A stretch of DNA of 64,000 bases from Nitrospiraceae bacterium (GTDB lineage: Bacteria > Nitrospirota > Nitrospiria > Nitrospirales > Nitrospiraceae), in the NCBI GenBank assembly GCA_035623075.1, contig DASPUC010000034.1, positions 3,095-67,094 on the forward strand, given 5' to 3'. The notes beneath the pieces were generated by a model. The model was given only the letters and a program-made list of their open reading frames with translations. It was not told the origin of the DNA and ran no database searches. Positions 42,617 through 61,634 of the stretch are shown piece by piece. The position numbers were made by a program, and so were the translations under genes. The first letter of the stretch is position 1. The number at the start of each line of letters is the position of its first letter.

Positions 42617-43719
42617 GTACGCTTGGGCTGTTTGGCCTTCTTCCTCTCCAGCAACCCGACCATCAATAACGGCCACACGACAGTCGCGTCGCTCAACACT
42701 TCAGCAAAACGGCCGCCTTCCTCAGGAGGGACAAATTTCCCCCACGAAATGCCTTCTTGATACGTACACCCACTCAACCCACCCCAATAGTCCGGCTCCG
42801 GACAGATTCGCACGCCATATTGAAACCGAGGCGGTTTCACATTCAGCCCCAGCCGCATGTTGGCGATTTCGATGTAGGGGCCGACTTGTTGTGCCCAATT
42901 GCGTGGGACGCCTCCACCAATCGTAAAAATGCCCAGTCGTTTGGTGGATGTCACGACATTGGTATAGCTATTGAGATCGAGGTAGGGGTTGAAAGAAGGA
43001 CAAGACCGGTTGATGAAACGGAGCACCTCAAGATCATTGGTGCCTTTCCCCTGCGATCGCGCCCGATCGATTTCACGACTCATCGCCCACGTGCCGACAT
43101 CCAGGCCCATTTCTGAATCAGTGAATGCGGGGATATACACCGGAATCTTCTTAAGGTACGCGCTCTTGAGGATCCCATCACCTTCAAAATCCTCGGCCAG
43201 CGTCTTCCCCAGTTCGCGTGTCAGGATTTCGGAGGACAGCGGCTGCTCGTGGTTGATCCGCTTCAGTGTCTGCGCAACAATGTGCTCGACGTAGTTCAGA
43301 TTAGCTTCCATCTCCAGTGTGTCGTAGACACGATTGTAACCCTTCCTGAACAGTTCTTCGTCACTCATCGACGGGCGATGGCGATAGTGTGTTTTCCCGA
43401 TGGATTCGCTGAGCCCATGTGCGATCAACGCGCCCGTCGAAACAATACCCTGGACCATGCCGTGGTCGATCATGGTGCTGACGATTTTGCCCATTTTGGC
43501 GATCGTCATCGCACCGGACAGCGTCAGGATCACCGAACAATCTGGATCATCGATCATCGACCACAGCACTTCGAAGGCTTCGCCCAATCGGCGGCCGCCA
43601 AAAGCTGTTTTGCGCATGGCGGTTAGGAGATCTTCGAAGGATCGGATCTTTTCCGGATCAAGCGGCTCAAGCGGTTCAAGCCCGTCTTTCGCACCGTCGT
43701 GGAACTCACGTGCAGCCAT
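42613..43719 (-). CDS. Deoxyhypusine synthase-like protein (bacterial DHS-like / homospermidine synthase type)
   Basis: Full-length DHS-family pattern (..FGGRRLGEAFEVL.., ..LTLSGAMT.., ..IFTIGGGVPRNW..). Confidence 0.8.
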   Translation of the reverse strand: MAAREFHDGAKDGLEPLEPLDPEKIRSFEDLLTAMRKTAFGGRRLGEAFEVLWSMIDDPDCSVILTLSGAMTIAKMGKIVSTMIDHGMVQGIVSTGALIAHGLSESIGKTHYRHRPSMSDEELFRKGYNRVYDTLEMEANLNYVEHIVAQTLKRINHEQPLSSEILTRELGKTLAEDFEGDGILKSAYLKKIPVYIPAFTDSEMGLDVGTWAMSREIDRARSQGKGTNDLEVLRFINRSCPSFNPYLDLNSYTNVVTSTKRLGIFTIGGGVPRNWAQQVGPYIEIANMRLGLNVKPPRFQYGVRICPEPDYWGGLSGCTYQEGISWGKFVPPEEGGRFAEVLSDATVVWPLLMVGLLERKKAKQPKRT

Positions 43720-44101: not shown

Positions 44102-44134
44102 GTGGTGGTCCCAACGGGATTCGAACCCGTGTTT
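44102..44134 (-). repeat. Left att-type direct repeat (tRNA T-arm + acceptor 3' strand + CCA on the minus strand)
   Basis: The reverse complement reads AAACACGGGTTCGAATCCCGTTGGGACCACCAC. Confidence 0.85.
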
Positions 44135-44160
44135 GGGCCTTGAGAGGGCGAAAATAGCGA
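44102..44160 (-). pseudogene. tRNA remnant (3' ~55 nt, tRNA-Glu(CUC)-like anticodon loop); not an intact tRNA
   Basis: On the minus strand there is a T-arm ACGGG-TTCGAAT-CCCGT and acceptor TGGGACC-A-CCA. Upstream is a loop CTCTCAA (U33, A37 context) on a stem of only 3 bp. There is no D-arm and no 5' acceptor strand GGTCCCA. Confidence 0.5.
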
Positions 44161-44515
44161 TTTCCACAAGGGCTTGATCTAAAACCTGGTTTCCCCATTT
44201 CGCTTGTTGACCAAGTAGTTACCTCGTTTACAGCGATTCTATTGGTCCCTGTTTATTCTATCCGTTGCTCCCATTTCTATCACAAATCCATCACAACAAC
44301 TGGCCGATGGTTCACATCAAATTCGATTCCGCTGGCCGCATTAAGAGAAGAGCTTTCATGGTTGCATTTAAATTGGGATAGCAATTCCAAGTCGAAGGAT
44401 CAAAAACCTCCCCCACACCAGAACCATAGACGTCGAATTATCTTGAGCTTTGCCGTATCATTTAGCCCGTTCAAAAAACAAATGATAATGGGCCGCATTT
44501 GAGCCAGGAGAAGCC

Positions 44516-46084
44516 ATGCAGTTTGATGCGAGTGTTCTGGCACCAACTCGAAGTAATTTCCTGAAGCACGATGGACCAGCAGGCCTCGTCGTCTTCCTGG
44601 TCGCACTACCTCTGTGTCTGGGTGTGGCCCACGCCTCCGGTGCGCCGCTGTTCGCTGGCATCATCGCCGGAATTGTCGGCGGCTGCCTGATTTCGATCCT
44701 GTCTGGTTCACAGATCAGTGTGAGTGGCCCGGCCGCTGGACTCGTCGTGATTGTCATCACAGCGATTCAGACACTTGGTTCGTATCAAGCGTTCCTGGTC
44801 GCGGTGGTCCTTTGCGGGGTCATTCAGATCGTGATGGGAATACTGGGTGCCGGGGCGATTGGCGATTATGTGCCGAATTCCGTCATCAAGGGGATGCTTG
44901 CTGGGATCGGGTTAGTGATCGTGCTCAAGCAGATTCCACACGCACTCGGCCATGATCTCGACTGGATTGGTGACTTGAGCTTTCTGGAAGCCGGCAACAT
45001 GAACACATTGTCGGCCATTTTCGCCGACGCCGCTCCAATTCTCGGCGGGCCGCTCCTCATTTCGGTCCTGAGTTTGATCATCCTTGTCGTCTGGGAGAAG
45101 CTTGCCTCAGGAGGTGCGCGCTTTTTCGGAGTTGTGCCCGGCTCACTCGCGGTTGTCGCGCTGGGTATTATCGTGAATCACGTCTTCCAAATTGTGGCTC
45201 CGGCGCTGTACATCAGCGATCCGCAGCACCTCGTGGAGCTGCCGGTCGCCCAATCATTCCAGGATCTGACCCATCAATTCACCATCCCCGATTTTTCTGC
45301 AATTGCAGACTCGAATGTTTGGTCAATCAGCCTGACGCTGGCCATTGTCGCAAGCATCGAAAGCCTTTTGTCGCTCGAGGCTGCAGATCGCATTGATCCG
45401 TACAGGCGGATCTCGCCTCCCAGTCGGGAACTCTGGGCGCAAGGGGCAGGCAACGTGGTCTCGGGGTTCCTCGGGGGCTTACCTGTTACCAGCGTTGTCC
45501 TTCGTACCTCCGCCAACGTGTATGCCGGCGGTCGTACCTGGATGGCTGCATTTGTTCACGGGTTCCTCTTGCTGGCAAGTGCACTCCTGATACCGCAATT
45601 GTTGAATCAGATCCCCCTTGCCTGCCTGGCGGCTATCCTCATCATGGTTGGATACAAACTGACGAAACCGGATATGTACCAGTCCGTCTACCGGCTGGGC
45701 ATGACCCAATTCATCCCCTTCCTCGTGACCGTGATGGCCATTGTGTTTACAGACCTCCTAAAGGGAGTACTACTTGGCCTGGCATGCGGGCTCTTTTTCG
45801 TACTCCGCAGTAACCACCGCGATGCAGTCACCGTTGTCAGCAGGGGCAATGCCTGCCTCATTCGTCTGAATAAGGATACGACATTCATCAACAAGAGTGA
45901 GCTTAGAACGAAACTGCGAGCCATCGAACGGGGTACCGATGTGTTGATCGACGGAACGAAGGCATCCTACATCGATCGCGACATTCTTGAAGTGGTGGAA
46001 GACTTTCGGAAGATGGCCGACCACCAAGACATCACGGTAGAACTGAAACATATTGCAGGCAAAATACTCGGACCGGAGACCTAG
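44516..46084 (+). CDS. SulP-family anion transporter with C-terminal STAS domain
   Basis: The multi-TM SulP pattern (GLVVFLVALPLCLGVAHASGAP.., ..AIVASIESLLS..) and the STAS-like tail. AGGAGAA RBS. Confidence 0.85.
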   Translation: MQFDASVLAPTRSNFLKHDGPAGLVVFLVALPLCLGVAHASGAPLFAGIIAGIVGGCLISILSGSQISVSGPAAGLVVIVITAIQTLGSYQAFLVAVVLCGVIQIVMGILGAGAIGDYVPNSVIKGMLAGIGLVIVLKQIPHALGHDLDWIGDLSFLEAGNMNTLSAIFADAAPILGGPLLISVLSLIILVVWEKLASGGARFFGVVPGSLAVVALGIIVNHVFQIVAPALYISDPQHLVELPVAQSFQDLTHQFTIPDFSAIADSNVWSISLTLAIVASIESLLSLEAADRIDPYRRISPPSRELWAQGAGNVVSGFLGGLPVTSVVLRTSANVYAGGRTWMAAFVHGFLLLASALLIPQLLNQIPLACLAAILIMVGYKLTKPDMYQSVYRLGMTQFIPFLVTVMAIVFTDLLKGVLLGLACGLFFVLRSNHRDAVTVVSRGNACLIRLNKDTTFINKSELRTKLRAIERGTDVLIDGTKASYIDRDILEVVEDFRKMADHQDITVELKHIAGKILGPET

Positions 46085-46088
46085 CACG

Positions 46089-46706
46089 ATGGACCCGTAC
46101 GTCAAGCTCTTGCTGTCGAACGAAGCGTGGGTGATGGAGAAGCTCGCTCTGCGCCGCGATTTCTTTCAACGAGCGGTCCACGGACAAAAGCCGAGGTTTC
46201 TCTGGATCGGCTGTTCGGATTCGCGTGTGCCGCCCGGAGAGATTACCGGATCGGAGCCCGGCGAGCTGTTCGTCCACCGAAACATCGCAAATCAGGTATC
46301 CGAAAGCGACTTGAGCGTGGTGAGCGTGCTGCAGTACGCGGTAGAAGTGCTACAGGTAGAGCATGTCATCGTGTGCGGACATTATCATTGCGGCGGGGTC
46401 TTCCATGCAATCCACGATGAGGAGGACAAGGGCGTGATCGGACAATGGCTTGACCAAGTGAGGGCGATTTACCGTAGCCACGCGGGCGAACTCGACTGCA
46501 TATCCGACTCCGCACTGCGCTTCGACCGCATGGTCGAGCTCAATGTCACCACGCAACTGAGGAATGTCGCCCGGACGGCCATCGTGCGGAAGGCTTGGGA
46601 GAAGAAGCAGGGGCTTCACCTGCACGGGTGGGTCTATGACTTGCGAACCGGGAAATTGAAGGAGCTTGAGACTCTCGACACACCCGACAAATCCAGTCCA
46701 GCATGA
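46089..46706 (+). CDS. Beta-class carbonic anhydrase
   Basis: WIGCSDSRVPP and VCGHYHCGGV carry the Zn ligands Cys, His, Cys of beta-CA. Confidence 0.88.
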   Translation: MDPYVKLLLSNEAWVMEKLALRRDFFQRAVHGQKPRFLWIGCSDSRVPPGEITGSEPGELFVHRNIANQVSESDLSVVSVLQYAVEVLQVEHVIVCGHYHCGGVFHAIHDEEDKGVIGQWLDQVRAIYRSHAGELDCISDSALRFDRMVELNVTTQLRNVARTAIVRKAWEKKQGLHLHGWVYDLRTGKLKELETLDTPDKSSPA

Positions 46707-46979
46707 ATATTACACTGCTTGACCGGGAGCGGACTGCATCGTACAGCTTGGGTATCAAAAACAGTTGTTTGTGACCCCAATAACAGCCAGTCTTGATCAT
46801 CAATGAAATCCTGAGAATGGCGGCTCTGAATCTTGAAGGGTTTTTGACCTCATCAGGGATTCCTTTGCAAACACAGCAGACCGCGTTTAAACCACCGTTT
46901 CTTTTGACGAACGCTATCCTAGCAAGTACGCTTCAGGCATAAGCGTTCCATTCCACTCTGAATTTGAATTGGAGACTAC

Positions 46980-47825
46980 ATGATGTCGAAATCCGTCCTG
47001 CAGGTGATGTTTGTGCTGCTCGTGCTGGGCATGATTCCGCGGGTCGTACAGGCCCAGCAACCAACGCTTCCAGCTTTTGAAGATCGAACCCATGATGATC
47101 ACTTTACCTTCAAGTACGGAAAGCCGTATACCCTCGATCCGTACACGTGGGTTTACACTAAGGAATTTGCACAGATGTTTCGGATGCCGGATAAGTGGAT
47201 TGATGCCAATCTCAAAGGCGCATTGGCCATTGCGTTCCGCATGACCACCATTGGAATTACCACCTGCGGACTTGGGGGTCGAGAAGACAGTTGTTGGCCT
47301 CCAGTCCAATGCCAATTGGATGTCTATTATGATAACCGCATCAAGCTGCCCTGGATGCACGACGAGATCATGAGGGATTTCTTGCTTCGAGGGGTTTCAT
47401 CCCATGAGTTTCTACAGGACCTGAACCACTCCAAAGGATTTCATCGCTATCGGCCAAAAGATGGAAAAGGCGTTCCAAGAGTCCTAGCCACTGAGGCTTC
47501 TCTCAGGGTTGGCAAGTACTCGTCTGGATTTGCTCCAATTGCGTACTTTGATCGTGAGTACGAACCGGGAGTTGGCCTCATCGGATGGGTCGGGATAGGG
47601 GTTTGCCCGACCCCTATAGGCATGGGGCAGATTGCGTTCTTCGATGTGGAGACCCAAGACAAGATTAATCACATGCAAGTCAAGCGCGAAGACGCGAAGC
47701 CAATACACGTAATTGAATTACCCGAATCTTTTATGCGCCGTGCCAACATCGTCTACGAACGCGATAACAAACCGAACGTGGCCGTGACCGAAAGGCTGAA
47801 ACAACAACTCCTTCAGTCTCGTTAG
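46980..47825 (+). CDS. Secreted hypothetical protein (281 aa)
   Basis: Signal peptide MMSKSVLQVMFVLLVLGMIPRVVQA and a GGAG RBS. No family recognised. Confidence 0.6.
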   Translation: MMSKSVLQVMFVLLVLGMIPRVVQAQQPTLPAFEDRTHDDHFTFKYGKPYTLDPYTWVYTKEFAQMFRMPDKWIDANLKGALAIAFRMTTIGITTCGLGGREDSCWPPVQCQLDVYYDNRIKLPWMHDEIMRDFLLRGVSSHEFLQDLNHSKGFHRYRPKDGKGVPRVLATEASLRVGKYSSGFAPIAYFDREYEPGVGLIGWVGIGVCPTPIGMGQIAFFDVETQDKINHMQVKREDAKPIHVIELPESFMRRANIVYERDNKPNVAVTERLKQQLLQSR

Positions 47826-48353
47826 CCTTAGATCCTTTACATGGTAGATTCTCGTATTTAGAGACCCTCTCTAAGCTTGAAGACTTCCAAGGGGAACCGA
47901 TTGTGCTCATGTTGTGCTCAAGCCCACCTCATTCCAGCCCACTCAGGCCTACTCCAGCCAAAGTTCGTACTTTCTGCAAACCTTGGCCCCAGTGGGCCTG
48001 AGTGAGTTCCAGTAGGCCTGAGTAGGGTCGTGATCGCGCTTTCCTAAACCGCGCTTCGTCTACAGTGCTGCACTCTGTGGTTTTATCAGCCTCACTGTGA
48101 TTCAGGAATGTCACATCGAGGCGTGATGCTTCCGCGGGTAGCCGGTGAAGTGGGTAGGAGTTACCAGATGCCTACCTGCCTTCATCCTTGACATCTAGGT
48201 ACCGCCAGCCTAGCCTACTCCTCACTGTAAGTTTTCTGCATAGCTGCAGAACGGGGCGAGGGCACCGCACTCACACAATAAGCACACCTATTCGCTCGCA
48301 AGCCACTGCCGGTACAGAACAACTCTCATCAAGTCGATGAGGAGGATGACGCC

Positions 48354-50630
48354 ATGTCGGAGAACTCGGATGAACTAAATGGATTGACCCGCCGGGAACT
48401 CACTAAGATCCTGGGAGCCTCCGTCGGACTGGCCTGCCTTGCGCCCCTGGCCGGCTGTGGCGAGCTTTGGGAACGCCAACCGGTCATCCCCGTTGACATC
48501 TGGCACAAGGGCGTCTGCCGGTTCTGCGGAACGGGCTGCGGCGTTATGATCGGCCTTAAGGATAATAAAATTGCCGACGTGAAAGGGGACGACGAGGGCC
48601 ACAACCGCGGTCGCCTCTGTATCAAGGGCTTGGCCACCCGTGACATTCTCTACACCGAAGGCCGCGCCCTGTACCCGATGATCCGGAAGAATGGTGAGTT
48701 CCAGCGGGCGAGCTGGGACGAAGCCATGGCGCTGGTGGCGCAAAAGTTCAAGGAATCGATCGAGACACATGGGCCGGACAGTGTGGCCTTCTATGGGAGT
48801 GGGCAGCTCTTCACGCAGGAGAGTTACACCGCGAATAAATTGTTCAAGGCCGGGATCGGCACCAACAATGTCGATGGGAACCCGCGCTTGTGCATGGCGT
48901 CGGCCGTCACCGGTTACACGACGACCTTTGGCAAGGATGAGCCAGCGGGCTGTTTCGAAGACATGGACGATGCCGAGTGTTTTTTTATCACGGGATCAAA
49001 CACTCTGGAGTGCCATCCGATACTCTGGGAACGCGTGCGGGACCGTAAGCGGAGTCACCCGGATACCAAGATCATCGTCGTGGACCCGCGCAAAACCTTT
49101 ACGGCACGGCACGCGGACCTATATCTACCCATCTATCCGGGGACGGACGTCTCCCTCTACAACGCGATGATTCACGTGTTTCTCGAACAGAAATTCGTCG
49201 ACGCGGACATGGTCGAACACTATCTCTCATTTCAGGAAGGCGAAGCGAACCGGACGTTCGACGACTTCAAGCGGCACATTGCGAACTTTACGCCGGAGGC
49301 GGCGGCCAAAACCTGCGGCATCACTCCGCGGGATATTCGCGAAGCGGCCTTTCTCTTCGCCTCGTCGAAGGCCACGATGTCGTTGTGGACCATGGGGCTG
49401 AACCAGCAAGCGCAGGGGACTGCGTCCAACCGGCTGGTCTGCGCGATGCATCTCCTGACGGGACACTTTGGCCGTCCCGGCGCCACACCGTTTTCGTTGA
49501 CTGGTCAGCCGAACGCCTGCGGCGGGGTGCGCGACACCGGCTCGCTCGCGCATGCGCTGCCGAACGGACGTCTGGTGGCCAACCCCAAGCACCGGGAGGA
49601 AATGGAGGATTTGTGGAATGTCCCGCGCGGGCGGATCAGTCCGAAGCCAGGCTTCCATGCCGTCGCTTTGTTTGACGCAATGAACCGCGGGGCAGTGAAA
49701 TGCTGTCTAGTGATGTGCACCAATCCTGGACAGACGCTCCCCAACGTCACGGCCTACCGGGAAGGGATGGAGAAGGCCTTCTTGGTCGTGGTGGACGCGT
49801 TTCATCCGACGGAAACGACACAATTCGCCGACGTGGTGCTGCCTGCCGCCCTATGGGTCGAGGAGGAAGGCGTCACGGGTAACGCGGAGCGACGCTATCA
49901 CCTCACTCCAAAACTCGTGGACCCACCTGGGGAAGCTAAAAGTGACCTCGAAATTCTGGTGGACCTGGCGGACCGCCTCGGCCACGGTGATCTGATCTCA
50001 GCCAGAACTCCGAAAGACGTGTGGGATGAATGGCGTAGGGTCTCAGCCCAGTCGAAATACAACTTTGAAGGCATTACCTACGAGCGGTTGCAGAAAGAGC
50101 GCGGGCTTCTCTGGCCCTGCCCGACGGAGACGCATCCGGGTACGAAACGGCGGTACGTCCCGGGTGAAGATCCCATGGCGACGGGCACGGGCCGGTTCGA
50201 TTTCTACGGAAAACCGGATGGACGAGCCACCGTCTGGCTGGATCATCAGGAAGAACCGCTTGATCCCTACACCGCCGAGTTTCCGCTGATCTTCAACACG
50301 GGCCGGATTCTAGAGCACTGGCATACGATGACCATCACTGGTAAGGCACCTACACTTCAGGGTATCCACCCCGACTACCTGGAGATCCACCCCTACGATG
50401 CCTATCAGTTACAAATCAAGGACGGTGATCCGGTTGTGGTGAAGAGCCGGCGCGGAGAAGTCGAGCTGCGGGCTCGTCTGACGGAGGTTGTGCGGCCAGG
50501 GATGGTGTTCGCAACCATGCACTCCGCCAAGCATCTGGTGAACCAATCCACTCAGGACGTCTACGATCCTTATTCGAAGCAACCAGCCTACAAACGTTGT
50601 GCGGTCGCAGTTCGGCGGAAGATGGCCTAG
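48354..50630 (+). CDS. Molybdopterin (bis-MGD) oxidoreductase of the Nap/Nas nitrate-reductase type, TAT signal plus lipobox
   Basis: TRRELTKILGASVGLACLAPLAGC (twin-Arg then LAGC). 4Fe-4S motif CRFCGTGCGV..CIKG. Mo-ligand context NPRLCMASAVTGY, and SLTGQPNACGG. GAGGAGGA RBS. Confidence 0.8.
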   Translation: MSENSDELNGLTRRELTKILGASVGLACLAPLAGCGELWERQPVIPVDIWHKGVCRFCGTGCGVMIGLKDNKIADVKGDDEGHNRGRLCIKGLATRDILYTEGRALYPMIRKNGEFQRASWDEAMALVAQKFKESIETHGPDSVAFYGSGQLFTQESYTANKLFKAGIGTNNVDGNPRLCMASAVTGYTTTFGKDEPAGCFEDMDDAECFFITGSNTLECHPILWERVRDRKRSHPDTKIIVVDPRKTFTARHADLYLPIYPGTDVSLYNAMIHVFLEQKFVDADMVEHYLSFQEGEANRTFDDFKRHIANFTPEAAAKTCGITPRDIREAAFLFASSKATMSLWTMGLNQQAQGTASNRLVCAMHLLTGHFGRPGATPFSLTGQPNACGGVRDTGSLAHALPNGRLVANPKHREEMEDLWNVPRGRISPKPGFHAVALFDAMNRGAVKCCLVMCTNPGQTLPNVTAYREGMEKAFLVVVDAFHPTETTQFADVVLPAALWVEEEGVTGNAERRYHLTPKLVDPPGEAKSDLEILVDLADRLGHGDLISARTPKDVWDEWRRVSAQSKYNFEGITYERLQKERGLLWPCPTETHPGTKRRYVPGEDPMATGTGRFDFYGKPDGRATVWLDHQEEPLDPYTAEFPLIFNTGRILEHWHTMTITGKAPTLQGIHPDYLEIHPYDAYQLQIKDGDPVVVKSRRGEVELRARLTEVVRPGMVFATMHSAKHLVNQSTQDVYDPYSKQPAYKRCAVAVRRKMA

Positions 50631-50645
50631 CGGAGGACTCTGACC

Positions 50646-51419
50646 ATGACAGAACAACTCGGGTCTCGCCGGAATCAGTTGATTGTCCTCATGGCGTTCC
50701 TTGCGGAAGCGTGGCTAGCGGCCTCTCCTGCATGGGCGGTCGAGACGCACGGCAGATGGTCAGACGTTGATGTCTTGCGCGGGATAGGCATAGCGGCCGC
50801 AGTGGGGGGCATCCTTCTGCTCATTCTGGTTCAGCACGTGTACCGAAACAAACTTCAGCATAGTACCTATCGGCGCCTGCTCCTCATCGGGTTGTTTGTG
50901 CTGCCGATTATCGTGACCTGGAGTACCACGAGGACGGTCATGGAGGGGACCAAGTCGGTGCAGGCCTGCATGTCCTGCCACGTGATGCAGCCCTTCGTCA
51001 ACGACATGGAAAATCCAAGCAGCCCGACGTTGGCCGCGCGGCACTACCGGAACAACTGGATTGCGAAAGACCAGTGCTACTCCTGTCACGTGACCTACGG
51101 CGCGACCGGTACCGTGGAAGGTAAACGAGACGGATTCCGACACTGGCTGTATTACATCACCAATACCTACGCGGATCCCATTCAGTACGCGGGCAGTTAC
51201 GACAATTCCAATTGTATGAACTGCCATCGAGGAACCGGCAAGTGGGAGCGTGTGAAGAGCCATCAAGCGCTCGTGGCAGAGCTTGCAGCAGACCGCATCG
51301 CATGTATCTCCTGTCACGGACCGCCCCATCCCCTACCGAGCGAGCGAAAAAAGATGGCGAGCCGAATAACAACGACCGCGGAGCTGGGAGGTCATTATGG
51401 AAACGACCAACGTCCCTGA
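50646..51419 (+). CDS. Membrane-anchored tetrahaem cytochrome c, NapC/NirT/NrfH-like
   Basis: N-terminal TM segments and four CxxCH motifs (CMSCH, CYSCH, CMNCH, CISCH). GGAGGA RBS. Confidence 0.75.
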   Translation: MTEQLGSRRNQLIVLMAFLAEAWLAASPAWAVETHGRWSDVDVLRGIGIAAAVGGILLLILVQHVYRNKLQHSTYRRLLLIGLFVLPIIVTWSTTRTVMEGTKSVQACMSCHVMQPFVNDMENPSSPTLAARHYRNNWIAKDQCYSCHVTYGATGTVEGKRDGFRHWLYYITNTYADPIQYAGSYDNSNCMNCHRGTGKWERVKSHQALVAELAADRIACISCHGPPHPLPSERKKMASRITTTAELGGHYGNDQRP

Positions 51420-51630
51420 TCGCGCCGCGGCATGGGTCGAGAGGCAATTGACACTGGCCGTGTATACCGCCATTGTGGGCCTCGTCTGCGTGTTGCTGTT
51501 TCTTTGGTACGGGTTCGGCGCGTGGACGATGGGGTTGGGGACCTTCATCGGCATCCCTCTGCTTGGGCTCGCGGGCCTGCTGTACCTCAGCGCCGTCGCC
51601 GCCGACCTGAAACGGCGGCGTGCCTTCTAA
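51397..51630 (+). CDS. Small two-TM membrane protein (77 aa)
   Basis: GGGAGG RBS 5 nt upstream and two hydrophobic helices. Overlaps the cytochrome gene's end by 23 nt. Confidence 0.5.
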   Translation: METTNVPDRAAAWVERQLTLAVYTAIVGLVCVLLFLWYGFGAWTMGLGTFIGIPLLGLAGLLYLSAVAADLKRRRAF

Positions 51631-51781
51631 TGACGTATCTGTCTTCGCTAGATCTTGAGCGCATGGGGCGAGCGCAGAAGCAATCAATCGATGAAAGAAA
51701 CGGTGCCATCATGAAGTGCTGAGCAAGATATTGGGCACAATGAAGGAGGCATGTAGCTACGCTTCCGGGAGGGAACAATCA

Positions 51782-52342
51782 ATGAGATATGACACGCTCA
51801 TCATCTTACTTCTTTCTCTAATAGTAGGTCTCTCGCTTCAACCGTCGATGGCATGGGCAGGAAAGTCGGCTGAGGCGGCCGAGATCGACCGTGAGGCGGA
51901 TGCGGCCCTCAAGAAATTGCTGGCGGATACGCCGGAAGCGGAGACGTTTCGAGAGGATGCCAAGGGCATCCTCATCTTTCCGAGTATCACGAAGGGTGGC
52001 TTTATTGTTGGGGCTCACTATGGGAAAGGTGCCCTCAAAAAAAATGGGGCAACGGTCGGGTATTACAGTACCACGGCTGCATCCTACGGTCTGCAGGCCG
52101 GCGTGCAATCGTTCGGCTACGTCCTGTTCTTCATGAACGACAAGGCGTTGGAGTATCTAGACAATAGCTCGGGGTGGGAGGTCGGGGTCGGTCCCAGTAT
52201 CGTGGTCGTGGATAAAGGCGCGGGGAAGAGCGTGACGACAACGACAGGACGGAGCGATGTCTATGCCTTCATCTTCAGCCAGCAGGGGCTGATGGCGGGC
52301 TTGGGGTTGCAGGGCTCAAAGATCACCAAAATTGAGCCGTAG
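51782..52342 (+). CDS. SYLF (DUF500/Ysc84-like) domain protein, secreted
   Basis: Signal peptide MRYDTLIILLLSLIVGLSLQPSMAWA. GILIFPSITKGGFIVGAHYGKGAL and ..SYGLQAGVQSFGYVLFFMND.. are SYLF-like. Confidence 0.65.
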   Translation: MRYDTLIILLLSLIVGLSLQPSMAWAGKSAEAAEIDREADAALKKLLADTPEAETFREDAKGILIFPSITKGGFIVGAHYGKGALKKNGATVGYYSTTAASYGLQAGVQSFGYVLFFMNDKALEYLDNSSGWEVGVGPSIVVVDKGAGKSVTTTTGRSDVYAFIFSQQGLMAGLGLQGSKITKIEP

Positions 52343-52419
52343 ATCGCGGCGACCCACCAAGGGTACTGGCAGACGTGTAGGGCAACAGTCGTGAATGAAC
52401 TGAGAAAGGAGAAGGGATA

Positions 52420-52899
52420 ATGAGGGTGCTGCAGATTAGCGTGCTGATGTTTTCGGTTCTGCTTCTCGGTCCCGTTCAGGCCCAAGAAGCGAATCAAATG
52501 AACATGGAGATTCTGAAAGAGAAAATCAAAGCCGACAAAAAGCTGATCATCGCCAACAATATGACGCTCACCGATGCGGAAGCGAAGAACTTCTGGCCGC
52601 TCTACGATGCGTATCAGAAGGAATTGGAGCAGATCAATCAGCGGATGATCACCACGATCAAGAGCTATGCCGATGCCTACAATGCCGGGAAGGGTGAGAT
52701 TTCCAATGACACCGCCAAAAAGTTGCTGGCTGACGCCTTGGCGGTCGATGAATCCGAAGTGAAGCTGCGGCAATCGTATGCGGCGAAAATGGGGAAGGTC
52801 CTTCCTGCGACGAAAGTCGCCCGCTATATCCAGCTTGAAAACAAGATCCGGGCGGTCGTGAAGTTCGAGCTGGCCGCGCTGATTCCCTTGGCGAGTTGA
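52420..52899 (+). CDS. Periplasmic helical protein (Spy/CpxP-like impression)
   Basis: Signal peptide ..LLLGPVQAQEA and a Lys/Glu-rich helical sequence. AAGGAGAAGGG RBS. Confidence 0.5.
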   Translation: MRVLQISVLMFSVLLLGPVQAQEANQMNMEILKEKIKADKKLIIANNMTLTDAEAKNFWPLYDAYQKELEQINQRMITTIKSYADAYNAGKGEISNDTAKKLLADALAVDESEVKLRQSYAAKMGKVLPATKVARYIQLENKIRAVVKFELAALIPLAS

Positions 52900-53035
52900 G
52901 GCATGCGACTATGTCAGCGTGCTGGTAAAAGCCTGTGATCGACAAAAACGATCAGCCAGCCGGCGCATCAAAAGGTTGTCAGCATGCGACTGCTATTCTC
53001 TGGATTCCATTGGGGATCAGAAACAGCACGCGTAA

Positions 53036-53060
53036 GGGTCAAAAACAACTATTTTTGACC
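53036..53060. terminator. AT-rich palindromic hairpin between convergent genes (possible bidirectional terminator)
   Basis: GGTCAAAAA-caacta-TTTTTGACC, a 9-bp perfect stem, lying between the 52899 (+) and 53278 (-) gene ends. Confidence 0.4.
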
Positions 53061-53277
53061 TGAACCCTTGTGTAGCGAAAGAACCTGTTCTTCAGTCAGT
53101 GCTTGGCCCTTTATTCTCGGTGTCCTCAGTTATTTTCAATTCAAGGAGTATGTTGCAGCCTTCTAAGGTGAACTATAGGTTGCCGCAACCGGCCAAGCTC
53201 AACAGCGTGCTCATCATTGGAAAGCGGTGAAGAATCGAGGATCGCAAAACACCCAAGCGATCCTTATATCGGCACAC

Positions 53278-53559
53278 CTAGTTAGATGTTTTGAAGGGGG
53301 CCCACCCCCAGCCATCGTGCTTATAGCCCTTCTTCTCCATGCACGCCACGTAGGCATCTGTGTCAGTTACAGGAACCTCGTAGGAAGTTCCTGCAACCAT
53401 TCCTGGGACGACCCCCTCATGCTGGGCGATGCTTAAACACTCGCGCTGATCGACGGACCAGTCTGCTTCACTTGTCCCTTGGGGAACGATGAATGAGTGG
53501 GAAGTGATGCTACACCCTGCGAGTACAGGAAGTGCGAGCGCAAGAACAGTGCTACGCAT
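53278..53559 (-). CDS. Small lipoprotein
   Basis: MRSTVLALALPVLAGCS lipobox. AGGAGG RBS before the ATG at 53559. Confidence 0.6.
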   Translation of the reverse strand: MRSTVLALALPVLAGCSITSHSFIVPQGTSEADWSVDQRECLSIAQHEGVVPGMVAGTSYEVPVTDTDAYVACMEKKGYKHDGWGWAPFKTSN

Positions 53560-53601
53560 CAGAGCCTCCTTCAGCTTTTGTTGATCTCGCACGACAACCA
53601 C

Positions 53602-54594
53602 TTAGCCCCCCTCTTTTGGGAGCCCTTTGAAGAGGCGCTCGGGAATCAACGGCGTGCGGAACACCCAGCGTATGCCGGCCTGCACCGTCCAGTCGAGACC
53701 CAGTGGCGTATTATCCCCCGTGATTCCCACACCGGGCCCAGCAAACACGTTCCAATGATTATCAAACCGGTAGCCGATTTGGCCCACCACGTTCGACGCG
53801 GTCGGTCGGTGGGTATTCCAATCGTTGTTCCAGGTTCCCTGGACCGAAGTCCACCAATGATCGGACCAGATGGTGTTGATGGTCCCCTGGACCTGCAAAA
53901 AGTGGAGGTCGGTGCGGGAGGGATCGCCGCCGACGGAGCTGTAGTCCTGGACCAGGAGATAGAACATGGAGCGCACTCGGGCCAGCGGGGCGGCCAGCAC
54001 CCCGCCCGGTCCGAGAGTATACTTGCCCGTGCCGAGTCGGTCCGGCGAGGCCGTTGGAAACAACACGTCTGTCCCGAGGAACACTGCCACGTACTCACTG
54101 GCATACACCCGCCCACCCACGCGAACCACCGTATCGCTAAGGCCGTTCGTCGGGAATCCCTGCCGCTGCTGATCGGCCCATACATAGGGCACCGTGGCCT
54201 GGACGCCAAAGTTGGGTGTGACCGGAAGGCGGATGACAGCCGTCGCGGTGTCCAGACGCTGCCCGAGGGTGAACTGACTGTGCCCGTAGGTGAGTTGATA
54301 GTAGCCGATGATGGCGGTCGGGTCTGTGCCGAAGGCCGAGGCAGCCTCCGAGAGGCGCTTTCGTTCTGCCGTAAGGCGGGCGCGCTCCTCTGGCGTAGCG
54401 CCCTGCAGGCCCGAGAACAGCCGTCGGTCCTCCGGCGGTGGCGGCTCCTCCGGTGGTTCGACGGCTGCCTCGTCAATATGTCCACCAGATGTCTCGGCCG
54501 CGATTGAAACTGAGCCTATTCCGGAATCAAAGATTCCAAAGAGACCGAGGACGATAAGGAGTATCAGACTCGTTGACGGGCCGGGAGTGTTCAA
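53602..54594 (-). CDS. Outer-membrane beta-barrel protein (MetA/phenol-pathway-like transporter impression)
   Basis: Signal-like LILLIVLGLFGIF, then alternating beta-strand pattern rich in Y/W/G/T. The start is uncertain: TTG at 54594 gives a clean signal peptide, and the ORF opens at 54684. Confidence 0.55.
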   Translation of the reverse strand: MNTPGPSTSLILLIVLGLFGIFDSGIGSVSIAAETSGGHIDEAAVEPPEEPPPPEDRRLFSGLQGATPEERARLTAERKRLSEAASAFGTDPTAIIGYYQLTYGHSQFTLGQRLDTATAVIRLPVTPNFGVQATVPYVWADQQRQGFPTNGLSDTVVRVGGRVYASEYVAVFLGTDVLFPTASPDRLGTGKYTLGPGGVLAAPLARVRSMFYLLVQDYSSVGGDPSRTDLHFLQVQGTINTIWSDHWWTSVQGTWNNDWNTHRPTASNVVGQIGYRFDNHWNVFAGPGVGITGDNTPLGLDWTVQAGIRWVFRTPLIPERLFKGLPKEGG

Positions 54595-55101
54595 CCAGCT
54601 TCCATGTGAGTCATTAACATTTGTTTTTGACCCTTGTCGCTTGAAGCAAGATCCCCTGTGAATTTCGACACCATCGGTCTTCAATTTCGGCGGGGCTTTT
54701 GACCCGGTTCCTCACCAGATTGGACTTCTATTCGTTTCGTGACCTGTCACCGATTTCGGATGCGTAAGCTAGCACTGTGGGTAACGCTGAGTAAACCCGC
54801 GTAAAGCGCGTAAGCTAGCTTGTCCCTATCTCGCACAGTGCGGTGCGCGAACACCGAAGCATTTCGTCCGTGAGAACCCGTTCGGATTTTTGGAAAAACA
54901 AACCGGGCAAGCTTACCCCGATCGGCTCGGACTGGAATCGGACCGCTGGACCAGACGATGGCCGAGTGACAGCTAGGCAGAGTTGGTAACTACTCGCGCC
55001 GTTTATTCGTTAAGGCAGCCACCGCTGCGGGTCTGCCTGCACAGATACCGTCGTGCTCCTCTCGCGTTGGGCCCTTCCTCTGCACTCCCCTCTCGGTTGC
55101 C

Positions 55102-55141
55102 AAAACCCGACACGAGTGTGGGCCGGTCATGTCGGGTTTTT
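55102..55141 (+). terminator. Rho-independent terminator-like hairpin with T-run
   Basis: AAAACCCGACA-(17 nt)-TGTCGGGTTTTT. There is no convincing ORF upstream on the plus strand. Confidence 0.5.
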
Positions 55142-55229
55142 GATTGTTGCATAGCACAGCCTATATACCCCAATCAGAACCAACAGTGCTTATGCGGGCT
55201 GCGTGGACTAGCCACACCCAGAGGCCAGC

Positions 55230-55538
55230 ATGTTGTGGACTGTGAAAGACCTCGCACACAGGTTGAACATCAAACCCTCGACGGTCTACTCGTGGGCGAC
55301 GCACGGACGGATTCCCTGTCTCAAGATTCATGGCGCGCTCCGGTTCCGTCGTGAGGAGATCGAGCGCTGGCTGGAGTCGCTCCGAGTGCAGCAGCCACTC
55401 ACCGCACCAAGCGACCCTCACACAGCGCTCGATGTCCTCATTGCTCGGACGAAACAGCACGCCTATACTCCTCCTCCACGGGGAAGCCAGACCAGATCAA
55501 GCCTCATCAGGAAGGAGGAAACGGATGGGGCTCTATAA
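55230..55538 (+). CDS. Excisionase/AlpA-type helix-turn-helix DNA-binding protein
   Basis: LWTVKDLAHRLNIKPSTVYSWATHGRIPCLKIHGALRFRREEIERWL is a classic excisionase-family HTH. Immediately upstream of int, overlapping it by 14 nt. Confidence 0.75.
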   Translation: MLWTVKDLAHRLNIKPSTVYSWATHGRIPCLKIHGALRFRREEIERWLESLRVQQPLTAPSDPHTALDVLIARTKQHAYTPPPRGSQTRSSLIRKEETDGAL

Positions 55539-56601
55539 GCGACACCGTGTTTGGTGGATGAGTTTCACATACAACGGAGAACAGATTCGCCGTTCGACCG
55601 GCACAACCAATAAGCGATTAGCTGAGGCAATCTGCTCAAAAGTCAGAGTCAAGATCATTGAAGGCCAATACTTCGACCGAGGGGAAGAGCAGGATCGGAC
55701 CGTCGGAGAAATGATGGAGCGGTATTTTCGAGAGCGGGTTGCTGGTGGGAATCGTCATAGTGAGCGGCGAGCCCGCTCCATTCTTACCAACTTGCGCTCG
55801 GTGTTCGGCTCAAAAACACTCGCTGCGGTCACGCCGAAAGAAATTGCCACGTATAAGGCAAACCGTCACCAGCAAGGGGCCAAACCGGCAACGATCGCCA
55901 AAGAACTGGGGCTCATGAAGGCGGCCTACAACGTGGCTATTCGGGAATGGGAATGGTGCCGAGAGAATCCGGTCTGCCGGGTGATGTTTGGACGAATTCG
56001 GAATGCTCGCGTCCGGTATCTCGACGACGGGACGTTTGAACGGGTCGTCAAGGCATGTCCGGCCTGGCTCCAGCCCATCGTCCTGATCGCGCGCTACACC
56101 GGCATGCGGCGGGAGAACGTCGTGATGCTTCAGTGGTCGCAGGTGGATTTACACCGGAAGTTGATTGTCCTTGAGTCCACCAAAAATGGCGATCGGCTCG
56201 GGGTGCCCCTGTGTGATCCTGTGATGACCATCTTGCAAAAGTTAAGGGGCACGAGATTGAACCCCTTCGGACCTGTGTTCACTCGGCTGGATGGAGAACC
56301 CCTGACAGGTGATGCCGTGGGGATCGCCTTCGGGCGAGTCTGTCGTCGGATTGGGATTGAGGATTTCCGCTTTCACGATCTACGACACACGTTTGCGTCG
56401 AGCTTGGTGCAGCAAGGTGTGGATCTGTACCATGTACAGCGACTGTTAGGGCACCGAGATGGTCGGATGACCCAACGTTACGCGCATCTGGCACCTGAAA
56501 ATCTGCGTGACGCGATCCAGGTGTTCAATCGCGGTAATCACAAAATTAGCACACAGGCAGCGGACCGCTCTGAGAGCATGGCACTAAGTCCTTGGAAATA
56601 A
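55525..56601 (+). CDS. int: Tyrosine recombinase (phage-type integrase)
   Basis: GGAGGAA RBS. The C-terminal catalytic region FHDLRHTFASSLVQQGVDLYHVQRLLGHRDGRMTQRYAHL has the R..HxxR..H..Y pattern. The ORF opens at 55330, but the ATG at 55525 has the RBS. Confidence 0.88.
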   Translation: MGLYKRHRVWWMSFTYNGEQIRRSTGTTNKRLAEAICSKVRVKIIEGQYFDRGEEQDRTVGEMMERYFRERVAGGNRHSERRARSILTNLRSVFGSKTLAAVTPKEIATYKANRHQQGAKPATIAKELGLMKAAYNVAIREWEWCRENPVCRVMFGRIRNARVRYLDDGTFERVVKACPAWLQPIVLIARYTGMRRENVVMLQWSQVDLHRKLIVLESTKNGDRLGVPLCDPVMTILQKLRGTRLNPFGPVFTRLDGEPLTGDAVGIAFGRVCRRIGIEDFRFHDLRHTFASSLVQQGVDLYHVQRLLGHRDGRMTQRYAHLAPENLRDAIQVFNRGNHKISTQAADRSESMALSPWK

Positions 56602-56634
56602 GTGGTGGTCCCAACGGGATTCGAACCCGTGTTT
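56602..56634 (-). repeat. Right att-type direct repeat (identical 33 bp)
   Basis: Identical to 44102-44134. The flanking sequence on the right is not tRNA-like. Confidence 0.85.
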
Positions 56635-56783
56635 TAATTCGACTGCGACTTCGCCATTTATTTACGCGAGCTTCGATTATTTTCTTCCAGTCAGAATGGG
56701 GTATGACTAAAACATGGGGCTGAATTTAGGATTATGTGTAGGTATTAGGTTGGCGCTGATAGCATCGCTTCCGAAATGGCAGT

Positions 56784-57695
56784 TCAATGGAAAGTTCGCT
56801 TTGCTAGCAACCCCATGAGTCTGGTGTGGAGGGCAACCAGATCATGTATAACTGTGACCTTGCTATTGAGCAAGAGATGCTCGATAGCAAGTGCGCCTTG
56901 TCCGCCAATCGCAACAGCCCAGCGCATCGATAGAGATTCGAGTTCTTGGAGAAGTTGTCGTACCACTGCGTCCGACTTCACCTCAGTCAGAGACAGAAGA
57001 ACCAGATCAGGTTCGACACGCTCACAGAATGTCTGAAGATCGGAAATGGGAAGGTTCGGTCCGAGATAATAGACATGGCAACCCCGCGTGGCGGCGATAT
57101 ATGCCACAGCCTGTGCACCAATCTCATGGGGCTCACCTTCCGGACATGCAACCAGAACACGCGGCCCGAATTCGTTTACTGGAAGTTGGTTCGTGACTGA
57201 AAATAACTTCTGCTGAACGAGTTTTGTCACATAGTGTTCCACCGCAATACTCACTCGTCCTTCGTGCCATAGCTCTCCAACACGGCGTTGCAGCGGAAGC
57301 AGGATTCTCTGCAGCGCCTCTTCAAACGGGATGACCGCTACTGCCCCATTGAGCTTCCTTTCGAAGCGGGTTTTATCGAGCGGATCGAGGAGCTTAACCA
57401 GTTCGTCGAGGAGACTCGCGTGCGGCTGCAGTTCTTGCGTGGTGGGAATCCCGCTGGTCCGCATTCGTTGGAGTAACGAATCGCGCCCCTCTAATGCGAG
57501 CGCGCCGATCGTCTGGCCGCGATCCAGTTCCTCTTTCAGGAATCGAAGGAGCGTCACATCTTGGTCCGTGTATTCTCTATAGCGGTTTGCGCTGCGCAAA
57601 GGTTTGACTAGTTCATACCGCCTCTCCCAGACCCTTATCACATCCTTCGAGAGACCTGTTAGCTTCGCAACTATATGAATTCTATAAGTATTCAT
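56784..57695 (-). CDS. carH: MerR-family regulator with B12-binding domain, CarH/LitR-type light sensor
   Basis: MerR HTH (IVAKLTGLSKDVIRVWERRYELVKP). W-x9-EH motif (WHEGRVSIAVEH). Cobalamin His-on motif E-x-H-x-x-G (GEPHEIGA), followed by a Rossmann-like B12 domain. Confidence 0.8.
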   Translation of the reverse strand: MNTYRIHIVAKLTGLSKDVIRVWERRYELVKPLRSANRYREYTDQDVTLLRFLKEELDRGQTIGALALEGRDSLLQRMRTSGIPTTQELQPHASLLDELVKLLDPLDKTRFERKLNGAVAVIPFEEALQRILLPLQRRVGELWHEGRVSIAVEHYVTKLVQQKLFSVTNQLPVNEFGPRVLVACPEGEPHEIGAQAVAYIAATRGCHVYYLGPNLPISDLQTFCERVEPDLVLLSLTEVKSDAVVRQLLQELESLSMRWAVAIGGQGALAIEHLLLNSKVTVIHDLVALHTRLMGLLAKRTFH

Positions 57696-57707
57696 GACTT
57701 ATTGTTC

Positions 57708-57736
57708 ATAATATTCTTGCGTCCAGTGTTTGTCAA
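57708..57736 (-). promoter_or_regulatory. Sigma70-like promoter for the carH-like gene (near-leaderless)
   Basis: The minus strand reads TTGACA-17 nt-TATTAT. The -10 box ends 12 nt before the ATG at 57695. Confidence 0.5.
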
Positions 57737-57755
57737 ATATTTTAAATTACAACAC

Positions 57756-57784
57756 TTGACACATTGGACAACATGGGTTATACA
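57756..57784 (+). promoter_or_regulatory. Sigma70-like promoter for the plus-strand operon
   Basis: TTGACA (57756-57761), 17 nt spacer, TATACA (57779-57784). Confidence 0.5.
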
Positions 57785-57814
57785 TTAGACATACATTGAA
57801 CATACATTAAACAT
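57782..57814 (+). promoter_or_regulatory. Three tandem 11-bp direct repeats (candidate CarH operator)
   Basis: ACATTAGACAT / ACATTGAACAT / ACATTAAACAT are exactly contiguous. A fourth related copy, ACATTGGACAA, lies at 57761-57771 next to the -35 box. Confidence 0.6.
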
Positions 57815-57833
57815 CAAATATGCGGAGGTGATC

Positions 57834-58130
57834 ATGGCAACAGCGGCGGAGAAAAGAGAATCGGCGGCGGAACTCACGATGCAGGGCTTCTCCAGCAAAG
57901 GCATCCAAGGCGGACGGTGCCATCAGTGCGGAGGACTCATGGTCGGCGAGTTCTGCATGGACTTACTAAACGGCAGTGGGGAACTCGAGTTCCTCGCCTC
58001 ACGATGCGTCCAGTGCGGGGAGGTCGTCGATCCAGTGATTCTGATGAACCGGAGGCTGCAGCGGAGCGCAGCTGCGGCACAGCCAGGCGAGGTGCTTTCG
58101 CAGTCAGTCGGATCTCAGGTGGCAGCGTAG
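57834..58130 (+). CDS. Small zinc-ribbon protein
   Basis: CHQC..(29)..CVQC. GGAGG RBS before the ATG at 57834; the ORF opens at a GTG at 57828. Confidence 0.5.
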   Translation: MATAAEKRESAAELTMQGFSSKGIQGGRCHQCGGLMVGEFCMDLLNGSGELEFLASRCVQCGEVVDPVILMNRRLQRSAAAAQPGEVLSQSVGSQVAA

Positions 58131-58188
58131 CGATGCGCTCAACCGACCAGGATGGTCCTGGTCTTTCTCAACACTAAGGAGGTTTCTC

Positions 58189-59154: not shown

Positions 59155-59299
59155 ACGTCGACCCGGCTCAAGGGGCGGTAAGACCGCCCCTTCCGAGCCG
59201 AATGAGCGACTGGAGTTTCAGCCAACATGATTCGCGGTCTGAAGAAAAGAATCCCGGGGTTTCAAGATAAACCATCGGGATCGTGACGGAGGCGGACGC

Positions 59300-59668
59300 A
59301 TGACACAGTACACGACACTGGTTCTCGGAATTTCTTTCAGTGCGTTCCTGCGAGTGGCCCCTCTCATGGCCGGGCCCATCGATCCAGTCCAGCATCCACA
59401 CCCGGAGCAAGCGACATCGGTCCACGAAGCCGAGCATGCTGTGGACCACGCATGGGAGGTCTATCACCGGGCGGCATTAGGGGGAACCGTGGCGTCCCCT
59501 GCTCTGCAGGCCGAGATTGAGGAGCATCTGCACGAGGCCAGAACCCTCGTGACTCGGGCACAGGAGGCGGCCGAACGCGGAGACAAACGTGAGGTGGATC
59601 ATCTGGTCGGGCAAGTGAAGATTCATTCGACAAAAGCCATCGAAGGCAGCAAGGAGCCGAAGAAATGA
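59300..59668 (+). CDS. Small secreted His-rich helical protein (possible metal-binding)
   Basis: Hydrophobic N-terminus, then PVQHPHPEQATSVHEAEHAVDHAWEVYHR..EEHLHEA. Overlaps the next gene by 4 nt. Confidence 0.5.
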   Translation: MTQYTTLVLGISFSAFLRVAPLMAGPIDPVQHPHPEQATSVHEAEHAVDHAWEVYHRAALGGTVASPALQAEIEEHLHEARTLVTRAQEAAERGDKREVDHLVGQVKIHSTKAIEGSKEPKK

Positions 59669-61617: not shown

Positions 61618-61634
61618 CACGAGGTGCCTGTATA

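Follow-up and report, generated by a model that had tools for sequence, protein, structure and literature searches.

The stretch of DNA considered here, referred to as the window (64,000 nt), corresponds to C34:3095-67094 of genome G000, a draft of 58 contigs from a nitrite-oxidising Nitrospira. Within the window, the 33-mer GTGGTGGTCCCAACGGGATTCGAACCCGTGTTT is present in exactly two copies, at 44102-44134 and 56602-56634, both on the plus strand. No third copy is found in the window when up to three mismatches are allowed, and the count in 100 shuffles was zero. The first-pass annotation took the two copies for perfect repeats of a tRNA 3′ end that bound an integrase island of 12.5 kb. The repeats are indeed exact at both coordinates and equal to the 3′ end of tRNA-Glu(CUC), and the 12.5 kb stretch does represent a genomic island that carries an integrase and sits at a tRNA 3′ end. 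It is the outer of two islands, A and B, which together measure 22.8 kb (22,841 bp) and lie at one tRNA-Glu(CUC) gene, each with its own tyrosine integrase (IntA and IntB). This gene is very probably a hotspot occupied by a tandem array of two non-conjugative tyrosine-integrase islands, of which A would have been acquired first and B second.

When tRNA-Glu(CUC) of G000 is numbered from 1 to 78, its anticodon loop occupies positions 35-41 and its T arm positions 51-67. The reverse complement of the 33-mer equals positions 47-78 of this gene plus one downstream base, a segment that spans the variable loop, the T arm, the acceptor 3′ strand and the encoded CCA. The earlier description of the minus strand as T arm, acceptor 3′ strand and CCA agrees with this match, to which the variable loop is to be added. 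Searches with ARAGORN and Rfam returned zero tRNA genes in the window, and neither repeat copy is part of an intact tRNA. A third occurrence of the 33-mer was located by whole-genome search on contig C47, at the 3′ end of an intact 78-nt tRNA-Glu(CUC) with encoded CCA; it is the single tRNA-Glu(CUC) gene of the genome. The two displaced copies differ in length. At the left copy, the match to the tRNA runs over 47 nt (44103-44149, equivalent to positions 32-78, 100% identity) and not over 32, and the whole anticodon loop is present. The right copy holds positions 47-78 and one further nucleotide only, without the anticodon stem-loop. Across their shared length, the three attachment-site (att) copies are 100% identical.

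The intact gene and the window can be joined through their contig ends. The right end of C34 and the right end of C47 (taken as reverse complement) share an exact overlap of 141 bp, which is unique in the genome and has the k-mer size of the assembler. The join places the intact tRNA-Glu(CUC) on the minus strand, 10.3 kb beyond the right repeat (66944-67021 in extended coordinates). From left to right, the array comprises the deoxyhypusine-synthase (DHS)-like/polyamine flank, the 47-nt fragment, island A (12.5 kb), the 32-nt fragment, island B (10.3 kb), the intact tRNA-Glu(CUC) and the GlnRS flank, in which a protein of 178-199 aa precedes GlnRS. Core genes had been proposed on both sides of the 12.5 kb. 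On the left this is correct, as the DHS-like, DsbA-like, aldehyde dehydrogenase (ALDH) and polyamine genes are conserved. The carH locus, in contrast, is no core flank on the right: it is cargo of the second island, B, which carries its own integrase and extends as far as the intact tRNA-Glu(CUC), another 10.3 kb to the right.

Because the genome is a 58-contig draft with a contig break adjoining the array, and because Logan contigs (k=31) break at the 33-mer, it could be asked whether the arrangement is an assembly or binning artefact, that is, a chimeric metagenome assembly across the repeated tRNA 3′ end. Such an origin is barely conceivable. At least five samples and three assembly sources give this order independently of one another, with 99.6-100% identity across both repeats and the C34/C47 join. 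The 21.7 kb contig ERZ27251323:k141_1717069, from an independent assembly, is colinear with the scaffold from 53257 to about 74960 at 99.9% identity and spans both the join and the right repeat. The contig break is likewise accounted for. In sample ERZ27251271 the IntB-type allele is only about 85% identical, and its divergence (66039-66433 extended, L156) starts exactly at the end of C34, after identical island-B cargo, so that the assembly graph branches at this point. As an observation in its own right, the ERZ27251271 allele points to a mosaic exchange of integrase modules.

The layout can be compared with the features by which the Islander database defines islands in tRNA genes (tDNAs). 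In the 12.5 kb candidate, an integrase lies inside one end (IntA; PF00589, phrog_1), and the far end holds a displaced tDNA fragment with the orientation of the intact tRNA gene (44103-44149, minus strand). At the integrase-proximal end, the 12.5 kb alone offers only 32 nt of tRNA (56603-56634), and an intact tRNA gene is found there for A and B combined. Following the Islander 'resolve' rule, the region separates into a tandem array, with A defined by IntA and the 47-nt fragment and B by IntB and the 32-nt fragment. Two details of the first-pass annotation hold exactly: the integrase stop codon (TAA, 56599-56601) directly precedes the right copy at 56602, and the excisionase gene ahead of int is an HTH_17 gene (55230-55538) that overlaps the int start. 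IntA starts at 55525 and was called as a 358-aa protein in seven independent contigs; the 423-aa open reading frame (ORF) from 55330 is an upstream extension. Its R, HxxR, H and Y motifs can be read in the sequence, and both integrases and xis are intact ORFs that give identical products across independent assemblies. IntA and IntB are unrelated integrases, with no more than 29% identity, confined to the catalytic domain. The features of the array are collected in Table 1.

Table 1. Features of the tRNA-Glu(CUC) array and its left flank (window coordinates; those beyond 64000 are extended through the C34/C47 join).
Feature	Position	Strand	Basis or remark
Deoxyhypusine-synthase (DHS)-like gene	42613..43719	-	Pfam PF01916; ancestral chromosomal neighbour of tRNA-Glu(CUC), left flank
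Displaced tRNA-Glu(CUC) 3′ fragment, left	44102..44149	-	Positions 32-78 + 1 nt; contains left 33-bp repeat; distal att of island A and of whole array
Non-coding left end of island A, probable attP arm	44150..44515		C40 similarity and ATCAAGCC motif
SulP-family anion transporter	44516-46084	+	Pfam PF00916/STAS, NCBIfam
Beta-carbonic anhydrase	46053-46706	+	Pfam PF00484, NCBIfam
Secreted 281-aa protein, no family	46980..47825	+	Signal-peptide-like N-terminus seen in sequence
Monomeric-type periplasmic nitrate reductase NapA	48354-50630	+	Pfam, NCBIfam, PDB match
NapC/NrfH-like tetrahaem cytochrome	50646-51419	+	Pfam and NCBIfam
SYLF/BPSL1445-type lipoprotein	51716-52342	+	PF04366, NF049970
Secreted 159-aa protein	52420-52899	+	Paralogue on C37
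Lipoprotein	53278-53601	-	Lipobox seen in sequence
360-aa putative outer-membrane protein	53602-54684	-	Sequence features only; paralogue on C16
Xis, excisionase/AlpA-type HTH_17, 102 aa	55230..55538	+	PF12728 for identical product; PHROG excisionase families
IntA, tyrosine integrase, 358 aa	55525..56601	+	PF00589 and Int_N, phrog_1
Second tRNA-Glu(CUC) 3′ fragment, right 33-bp repeat	56602..56634	-	Positions 47-78 + 1 nt; distal att of island B, B/A junction
End of island B, probable attP arm of IntB-type islands	56635..56719		86-89% identical to L188 and L226 sequence adjoining 33-nt fragments
Island B cargo	56784..64000		CarH, Zn-ribbon, two formylglycine-generating enzyme (FGE)-sulfatase genes with a His-rich protein between, epimerase/DUF1731, cyclobutane pyrimidine dimer (CPD) photolyase, YbgA/DUF1722 (Pfam)
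CarH-type MerR/B12 regulator	56784-57695	-	Pfam
CPD photolyase	61614-63080		Pfam
Island B beyond window			VapBC toxin-antitoxin pair, ribbon-helix-helix (RHH) protein, 144-aa ORF, IntB, then intact tRNA-Glu(CUC)
IntB, 338-aa XerC-like tyrosine integrase	65919-66935		Stop 8 nt from tRNA-Glu(CUC)
Intact tRNA-Glu(CUC)	66944-67021	-	

The first-pass annotation proposed looking for an empty site in related genomes, and such sites were found in seven other species and in three conspecific contigs. In the seven species, all from the same order (G012, G018, G025, G028, G031, G034 and G040), tRNA-Glu(CUC) and the DHS-like gene share one strand, with the tRNA 150-210 nt upstream, and the sequence after the left fragment of G000 aligns with the sequence just after their tRNA. 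The outer flank of the left fragment is orthologous to the tRNA-downstream flank of these empty-site relatives. In the conspecific contigs (99.2-99.9% identical), the DHS flank follows directly on tRNA-Glu(CUC). One of them, L174 (ERZ27251293, 13.4 kb), contains the predicted empty junction of 460 nt (..44149 to 66991..) exactly, with flanks that are 99.83% and 99.92% identical, and L173 and L178, which come from two further samples, show the same junction. The occupied (L160) and the empty (L174) allele were both recovered from sample ERZ27251293, and the ends of two short JGI contigs coincide exactly with the limits of the stretch that tRNA and fragment have in common, as expected if occupied and empty alleles coexist.

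What the empty contigs lack is always A and B together, i.e., 22,841 bp, and never the 12.5 kb alone. Of the idea that the 12.5 kb is the unit missing from relatives, the empty site is confirmed and the extent of the unit is not. No allele of this strain with A alone or B alone was found among the 7-16 contigs per look-up. JGI metagenome contigs were also scanned for the 33-mer, with 80 matching contigs listed, beyond which there are 28 further matching stretches. Among the matches listed, there is no exact A-only or B-only allele of this strain; in L188, from a lineage of about 97% identity, the end of an IntB-type island directly adjoins the DHS flank, and L226 is a 4.8 kb IntB-type island of a more distant Nitrospira. 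In other Nitrospiraceae, 2-47 kb with one to three tRNA fragments separate tRNA-Glu(CUC) from the DHS-like gene, and this variable content identifies the tRNA gene as an integration hotspot.

In tDNA islands, the block of identity runs from the crossover segment to the 3′ end of the gene, and the sites belong to an anticodon (A) or a T/J class (PMC4383910). The IntA family has the first of these signatures. Homologues of IntA occur in seven public Nitrospira records (mostly 61-65% identity) and in G024 (68%), and all of them converge on an intact tRNA-Glu(CUC); those with 61-68% identity end 13-49 nt from it. More distant homologues sit at tRNA-Gly, tRNA-Arg, tRNA-Lys or tRNA-Ala. Wherever a distal fragment of an IntA-type island was captured, it starts at position 32 (G000 and the two fragments of L056) or 35 (G024, L035, L037, L040), and before it lies a shared arm containing ATCAAGCC. 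IntA thereby shows the class A identity block from the anticodon loop to the 3′ end, the crossover itself being placed by where the blocks start. At least 15 other displaced tRNA fragments in G000 start at positions 29-35 as well (Thr, Arg, Ser, Phe, Met, Val, Gln, Lys and Glu genes). The homologues of IntB in G011 (about 70% identity) adjoin the tRNA, or fragments that start at positions 46-49, and the 85 nt adjoining the 32-nt fragment are conserved at 86-89% in other IntB-type islands. Fragment length is accordingly associated with integrase family.

Further integrases of both kinds were encountered in this survey. In G000, at least nine additional IntA-like integrases converge on tRNA genes, and the genome is full of anticodon-class islands, many of which lie at contig ends. 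In G011 (C1:3837187-3838242, L136), a 33-nt tRNA-Glu(CUC) fragment with an IntB-like gene is located 1.7 Mb from the tRNA-Glu of that genome; secondary integration or a rearrangement between att copies might account for it. The T-loop G/A differences of G001 and G007 were set aside as a means of placing the crossover, because the integrases there are only about 25-28% identical to IntA.

The fragment signatures bear directly on the model, implicit in the first-pass annotation, that the 33-bp pair is what IntA recombines. Island A would then be an autonomous and still mobile 12.5 kb element, in which IntA and Xis act on the 33-bp repeats and the extra 15 nt of identity on the left are incidental. 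Perfect direct repeats and intact int and xis genes are in line with this model, and the same ends would be expected if A had entered the 32-nt fragment of a B-only ancestor, for which the IntB-type island end on the DHS flank of L188 offers a precedent. However, every IntA-type island examined (G000, G024, L035, L037, L040 and L056) retains tRNA identity that begins with the anticodon loop or 3 nt ahead of it, and the roughly 15 other displaced fragments do likewise, which is the signature of an anticodon-loop crossover. IntA probably cannot use the 33-bp pair because the right copy is devoid of this loop. The lack of A-only and B-only alleles in the look-ups also speaks against an independent 12.5 kb element, which we therefore consider quite improbable. 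The perfect 33-bp repeat is the 3′ part of the tRNA common to both displaced fragments and is probably not the substrate pair of IntA.

The history that we propose for the array starts from the principle that each integration would regenerate the tRNA with island-borne sequence while displacing the old 3′ end. The crossover of IntA would fall in the anticodon loop, that of IntB in the T arm or close to it. Island A would have integrated first, and island B would then have entered the regenerated tRNA, which would result in the order tRNA, IntB/island B/32-nt fragment, IntA/island A/47-nt fragment and ancestral flank. With the insertion of B, everything 5′ of position 47 at the proximal end of A would have been replaced, and the crossover sequence of IntA removed. 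At present, IntA would be able to pair the 47-nt fragment with the intact tRNA only, leading to the excision of A and B as one unit. For island A to leave by itself, either B would have to be excised first or IntB would have to recombine the 33 bp that the copies share; in principle, any two of the three att copies could serve IntB.

A more far-reaching version of this history may be put forward tentatively. Island A could be a hitch-hiker which was stripped of its crossover site by the later IntB island and which moves only with the 22.8 kb composite or after B has left. In this way, islands would fuse into larger native-like cassettes that replace lost chromosomal clusters. This version is possible, though we would not count on it. 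With island A locked in this manner, the restriction of the observed alleles to A+B and empty would be explained. If it were true, Nitrospira islands would fuse into larger cassettes such as the present one, with NapA respiration next to a CarH/photolyase light response.

Composition, which the first-pass annotation had proposed to compare inside and outside, is of no help as an island marker here. The GC content is 0.558 for island A, 0.568 for island B and 0.559 for the genome. A tetranucleotide distance at least as large is seen in 43% (A) and 39% (B) of random pieces of the genome that match the island in length, and the codon-usage distance is reached by 35% (A) and 30% (B) of the background sets; all three measures are genome-like in both islands. 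Such tests neither support nor exclude an island; it is the comparative evidence that decides. A genome-like composition is fitting because nearly every gene of island A has a paralogue in the genome with 74-93% amino-acid identity. The NapA and cytochrome genes have a paralogous pair at C24:331715-335054 (L155; 89% nucleotide and 92-93% amino-acid identity), and no IntA-like integrase was found on that contig. Close homologues of NapA were seen in just 3 of 60 sampled genomes of the family. The SulP/beta-carbonic anhydrase cassette recurs with 82% nucleotide identity on a second IntA-family island at tRNA-Val(CAC) (C26:153501-159341, L154), an island whose int is 45% identical to IntA and which also has xis. 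Paralogues of the SYLF lipoprotein and of the 159-aa protein are located on C37, and one of the 360-aa protein on C16. Islands with related integrases were found to have no cargo in common, the recurring genes being those of the backbone only (xis, RHH, VapB). Judged by these sequence relationships, the islands shuttle Nitrospira-type genes among Nitrospira, with a cargo that is native-like (paralogues or xenologues).

Readings of the array as a prophage, a phage satellite, an integrative and conjugative element (ICE) or an integrative and mobilisable element (IME) were rejected, because genes of these kinds are not present. No phage structural, packaging or replication genes were found, the PHROG matches being int and xis only, and relaxase, oriT, coupling protein and type IV secretion gave no Pfam or NCBIfam match in A or B. 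All that B contains in this direction is a 76-aa RHH protein (DUF6290/NikA-like). The description of the cargo as metabolic and envelope-related rather than phage-like, made in the first pass, fits these results.

Some of the observations weigh against the proposed history. Neither island shows a compositional signal, their distances remaining within the spread of the genome itself. The single-nucleotide polymorphism (SNP) 43041C occurs in all three empty contigs and 40591C in two of them, and both are absent from occupied contigs; the empty alleles consequently look like a sister sub-lineage and not like fresh excisants, and taking them for fresh excision products is weakened by private SNPs that are common to three samples. 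Among the 80 matches listed in the 33-mer scan, there is no circular IntB/xA, IntA/xA or IntB/xB junction. The crossover positions are deduced from where the identity blocks begin. Moreover, the same final structure would result if B had come first and A had then crossed over inside the 32-nt fragment, and L188 shows that such a pre-state can exist.

A fixed relic would also be compatible with part of these data. In that case, the islands would be immobile remnants, and the polymorphism would stem from old lineage sorting or from deletion by homologous recombination between the 50-nt repeats. The fully ameliorated or native-like composition, the shared SNPs of the empty alleles, the lack of a circular junction among the listed matches and the absence of transfer genes from the Pfam and PHROG scans of A and B would all suit this explanation. 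We regard it as rather unlikely in view of the intact integrases and xis, whose products are identical across independent assemblies, and of the full identity of the three att copies over their shared length. In addition, occupied and empty flanks differ by 0.4% at most, the two alleles co-occur in one sample, and the island content at tRNA-Glu(CUC) differs in nearly every related genome, which denotes a high turnover. The succession of A and then B at an integration hotspot remains the preferred reading.

Tandem tDNA islands are well established, with 125 tandem arrays listed in Islander (Hudson, Lau and Williams 2015, PMC4383910) and sublocation classes defined by Williams (2002). The array described here is a standard tDNA-integrated island pair and of an already known kind. 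In common with the Islander arrays, it has a tyrosine integrase beside the target, a regenerated tRNA and a displaced 3′ fragment in the same orientation at the far end, and identity blocks of both the anticodon (A) and the T/J class are present. It differs from them in that two unrelated integrase families are stacked on different sublocations of one tRNA, so that the newer insertion would truncate the proximal site of the older island to 32 nt, as well as in its nitrifier host (Nitrospira) and in a cargo of native-like composition.

The ssrA islands of Dehalococcoides (McMurdie et al. 2011, PMC3146451) are the closest ecological counterpart. They are likewise arranged in tandem downstream of one small-RNA gene with direct repeats of its 3′ end, and they carry respiratory and metabolic genes, no conjugation genes and a strain-variable content. 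Adjacent ssrA islands are thought to be co-mobilised at times, and accretion has been proposed (PMC3146451). The Dehalococcoides islands differ in their serine recombinase (DsiB), a 20-bp ssrA repeat, a single integrase family and a composition that is in some cases atypical, whereas the present array has tyrosine integrases, a tRNA gene as target and no compositional deviation. Accretion has also been described for ICESt1 and a cis-mobilisable element (CIME) (Pavlovic et al. 2004, as cited in PMC3146451 and PMC5704250). According to these citing accounts, a second element enters a resident att, which gives three att copies of which different pairs can recombine, as may be the case here. Set against what those accounts convey of ICESt1/CIME, the array has no conjugation or relaxase module, both of its partners encode integrases, and it is known from sequence alone. 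Lastly, the Int-Xis modules of P4-like and other phage-type elements, which pair an AlpA/HTH_17 excisionase with an arm-binding tyrosine integrase, are similar: IntA matches phrog_1 and has an Int_N domain, Xis is of the HTH_17 type, and int converges on the tRNA 3′ end. Phage or satellite genes are lacking in the present case.

The NapA module, the SulP/carbonic anhydrase cassette and the whole CarH-regulated photolyase cluster lie on islands here, vary between strains and pass from one close relative to another, an exchange to which island finders based on composition are blind. A strain with the array would gain periplasmic nitrate reduction, a light-regulated photolyase cluster and the handling of anions and bicarbonate. 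For metagenome-derived genomes, this means that such traits should not be assumed to be species-wide. Together with at least 15 other tRNA sites in G000, tRNA-Glu(CUC) is a place of variable content and of assembly breaks. The array also provides a clean natural case for how stacked islands with different crossover sublocations constrain later units of excision.

As regards the individual genes of island A, the first-pass assignments of SulP and beta-carbonic anhydrase, of a NapA-like enzyme with a tetrahaem cytochrome and of a SYLF protein were all recovered in the family searches (Table 1). NapA matches the monomeric NapA of Desulfovibrio desulfuricans over its full length with 817 bits (PDB 2NAP/2JIO), and its partner is NapC/NrfH-like. 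The earlier 'OM barrel' (outer membrane) and 'periplasmic proteins' had no family match in the Pfam and PHROG scans, and sequence features are their sole basis. The 281-aa protein had no match in Pfam, NCBIfam or PHROGs. At the non-coding left end, 44168-44484 matches C40:8171-8488 with 79% identity. The C40 sequence adjoins a displaced fragment of tRNA-Lys(CUU) that belongs to another island of the IntA family. The integrases of the two islands are only about 41% identical despite this match. The conserved stretch may be an arm of the element's own att site (attP), or a small unannotated gene or RNA. The ATCAAGCC motif adjoining the 47-nt fragment is common to the IntA-type islands of other Nitrospira.

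The cargo of island B has a chromosomal counterpart. The eight-gene cluster from CarH to YbgA is chromosomal and syntenic in four other genera, and the apparent native locus in G000 (C44:316-4527) retains only a YbgA paralogue and the downstream neighbour. With the cluster chromosomal elsewhere and the native C44 locus reduced, the cargo of island B has been mobilised. The C44 locus lies 2.7 kb from a 22-nt tRNA-Leu(CAG) fragment, and in G009 (L152) the full CarH cluster is found 5 kb downstream of tRNA-Leu(CAG). It is possible that the neighbourhood of tRNA-Leu(CAG) served as a route for the loss or capture of the cluster.

Two minor features of island A complete the picture. Close to 53257, where a low-GC spacer separates the 159-aa gene from that of the lipoprotein, two independent contigs start (ERZ27251323:k141_1717069 and JGI Ga0187778_10008972), and this position may be a point of variation or recombination within the island. 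The leader of the NapA operon contains a repeat (47897-48053, about 155 bp) that recurs at least 12 times in the genome with 77-90% identity, on C3 (three copies), C4, C11, C17 (end), C19 (end), C21, C26 (two copies), C40 and C49. With two of its copies at contig ends, it looks like an assembly-breaking element similar to a miniature inverted-repeat transposable element (MITE).

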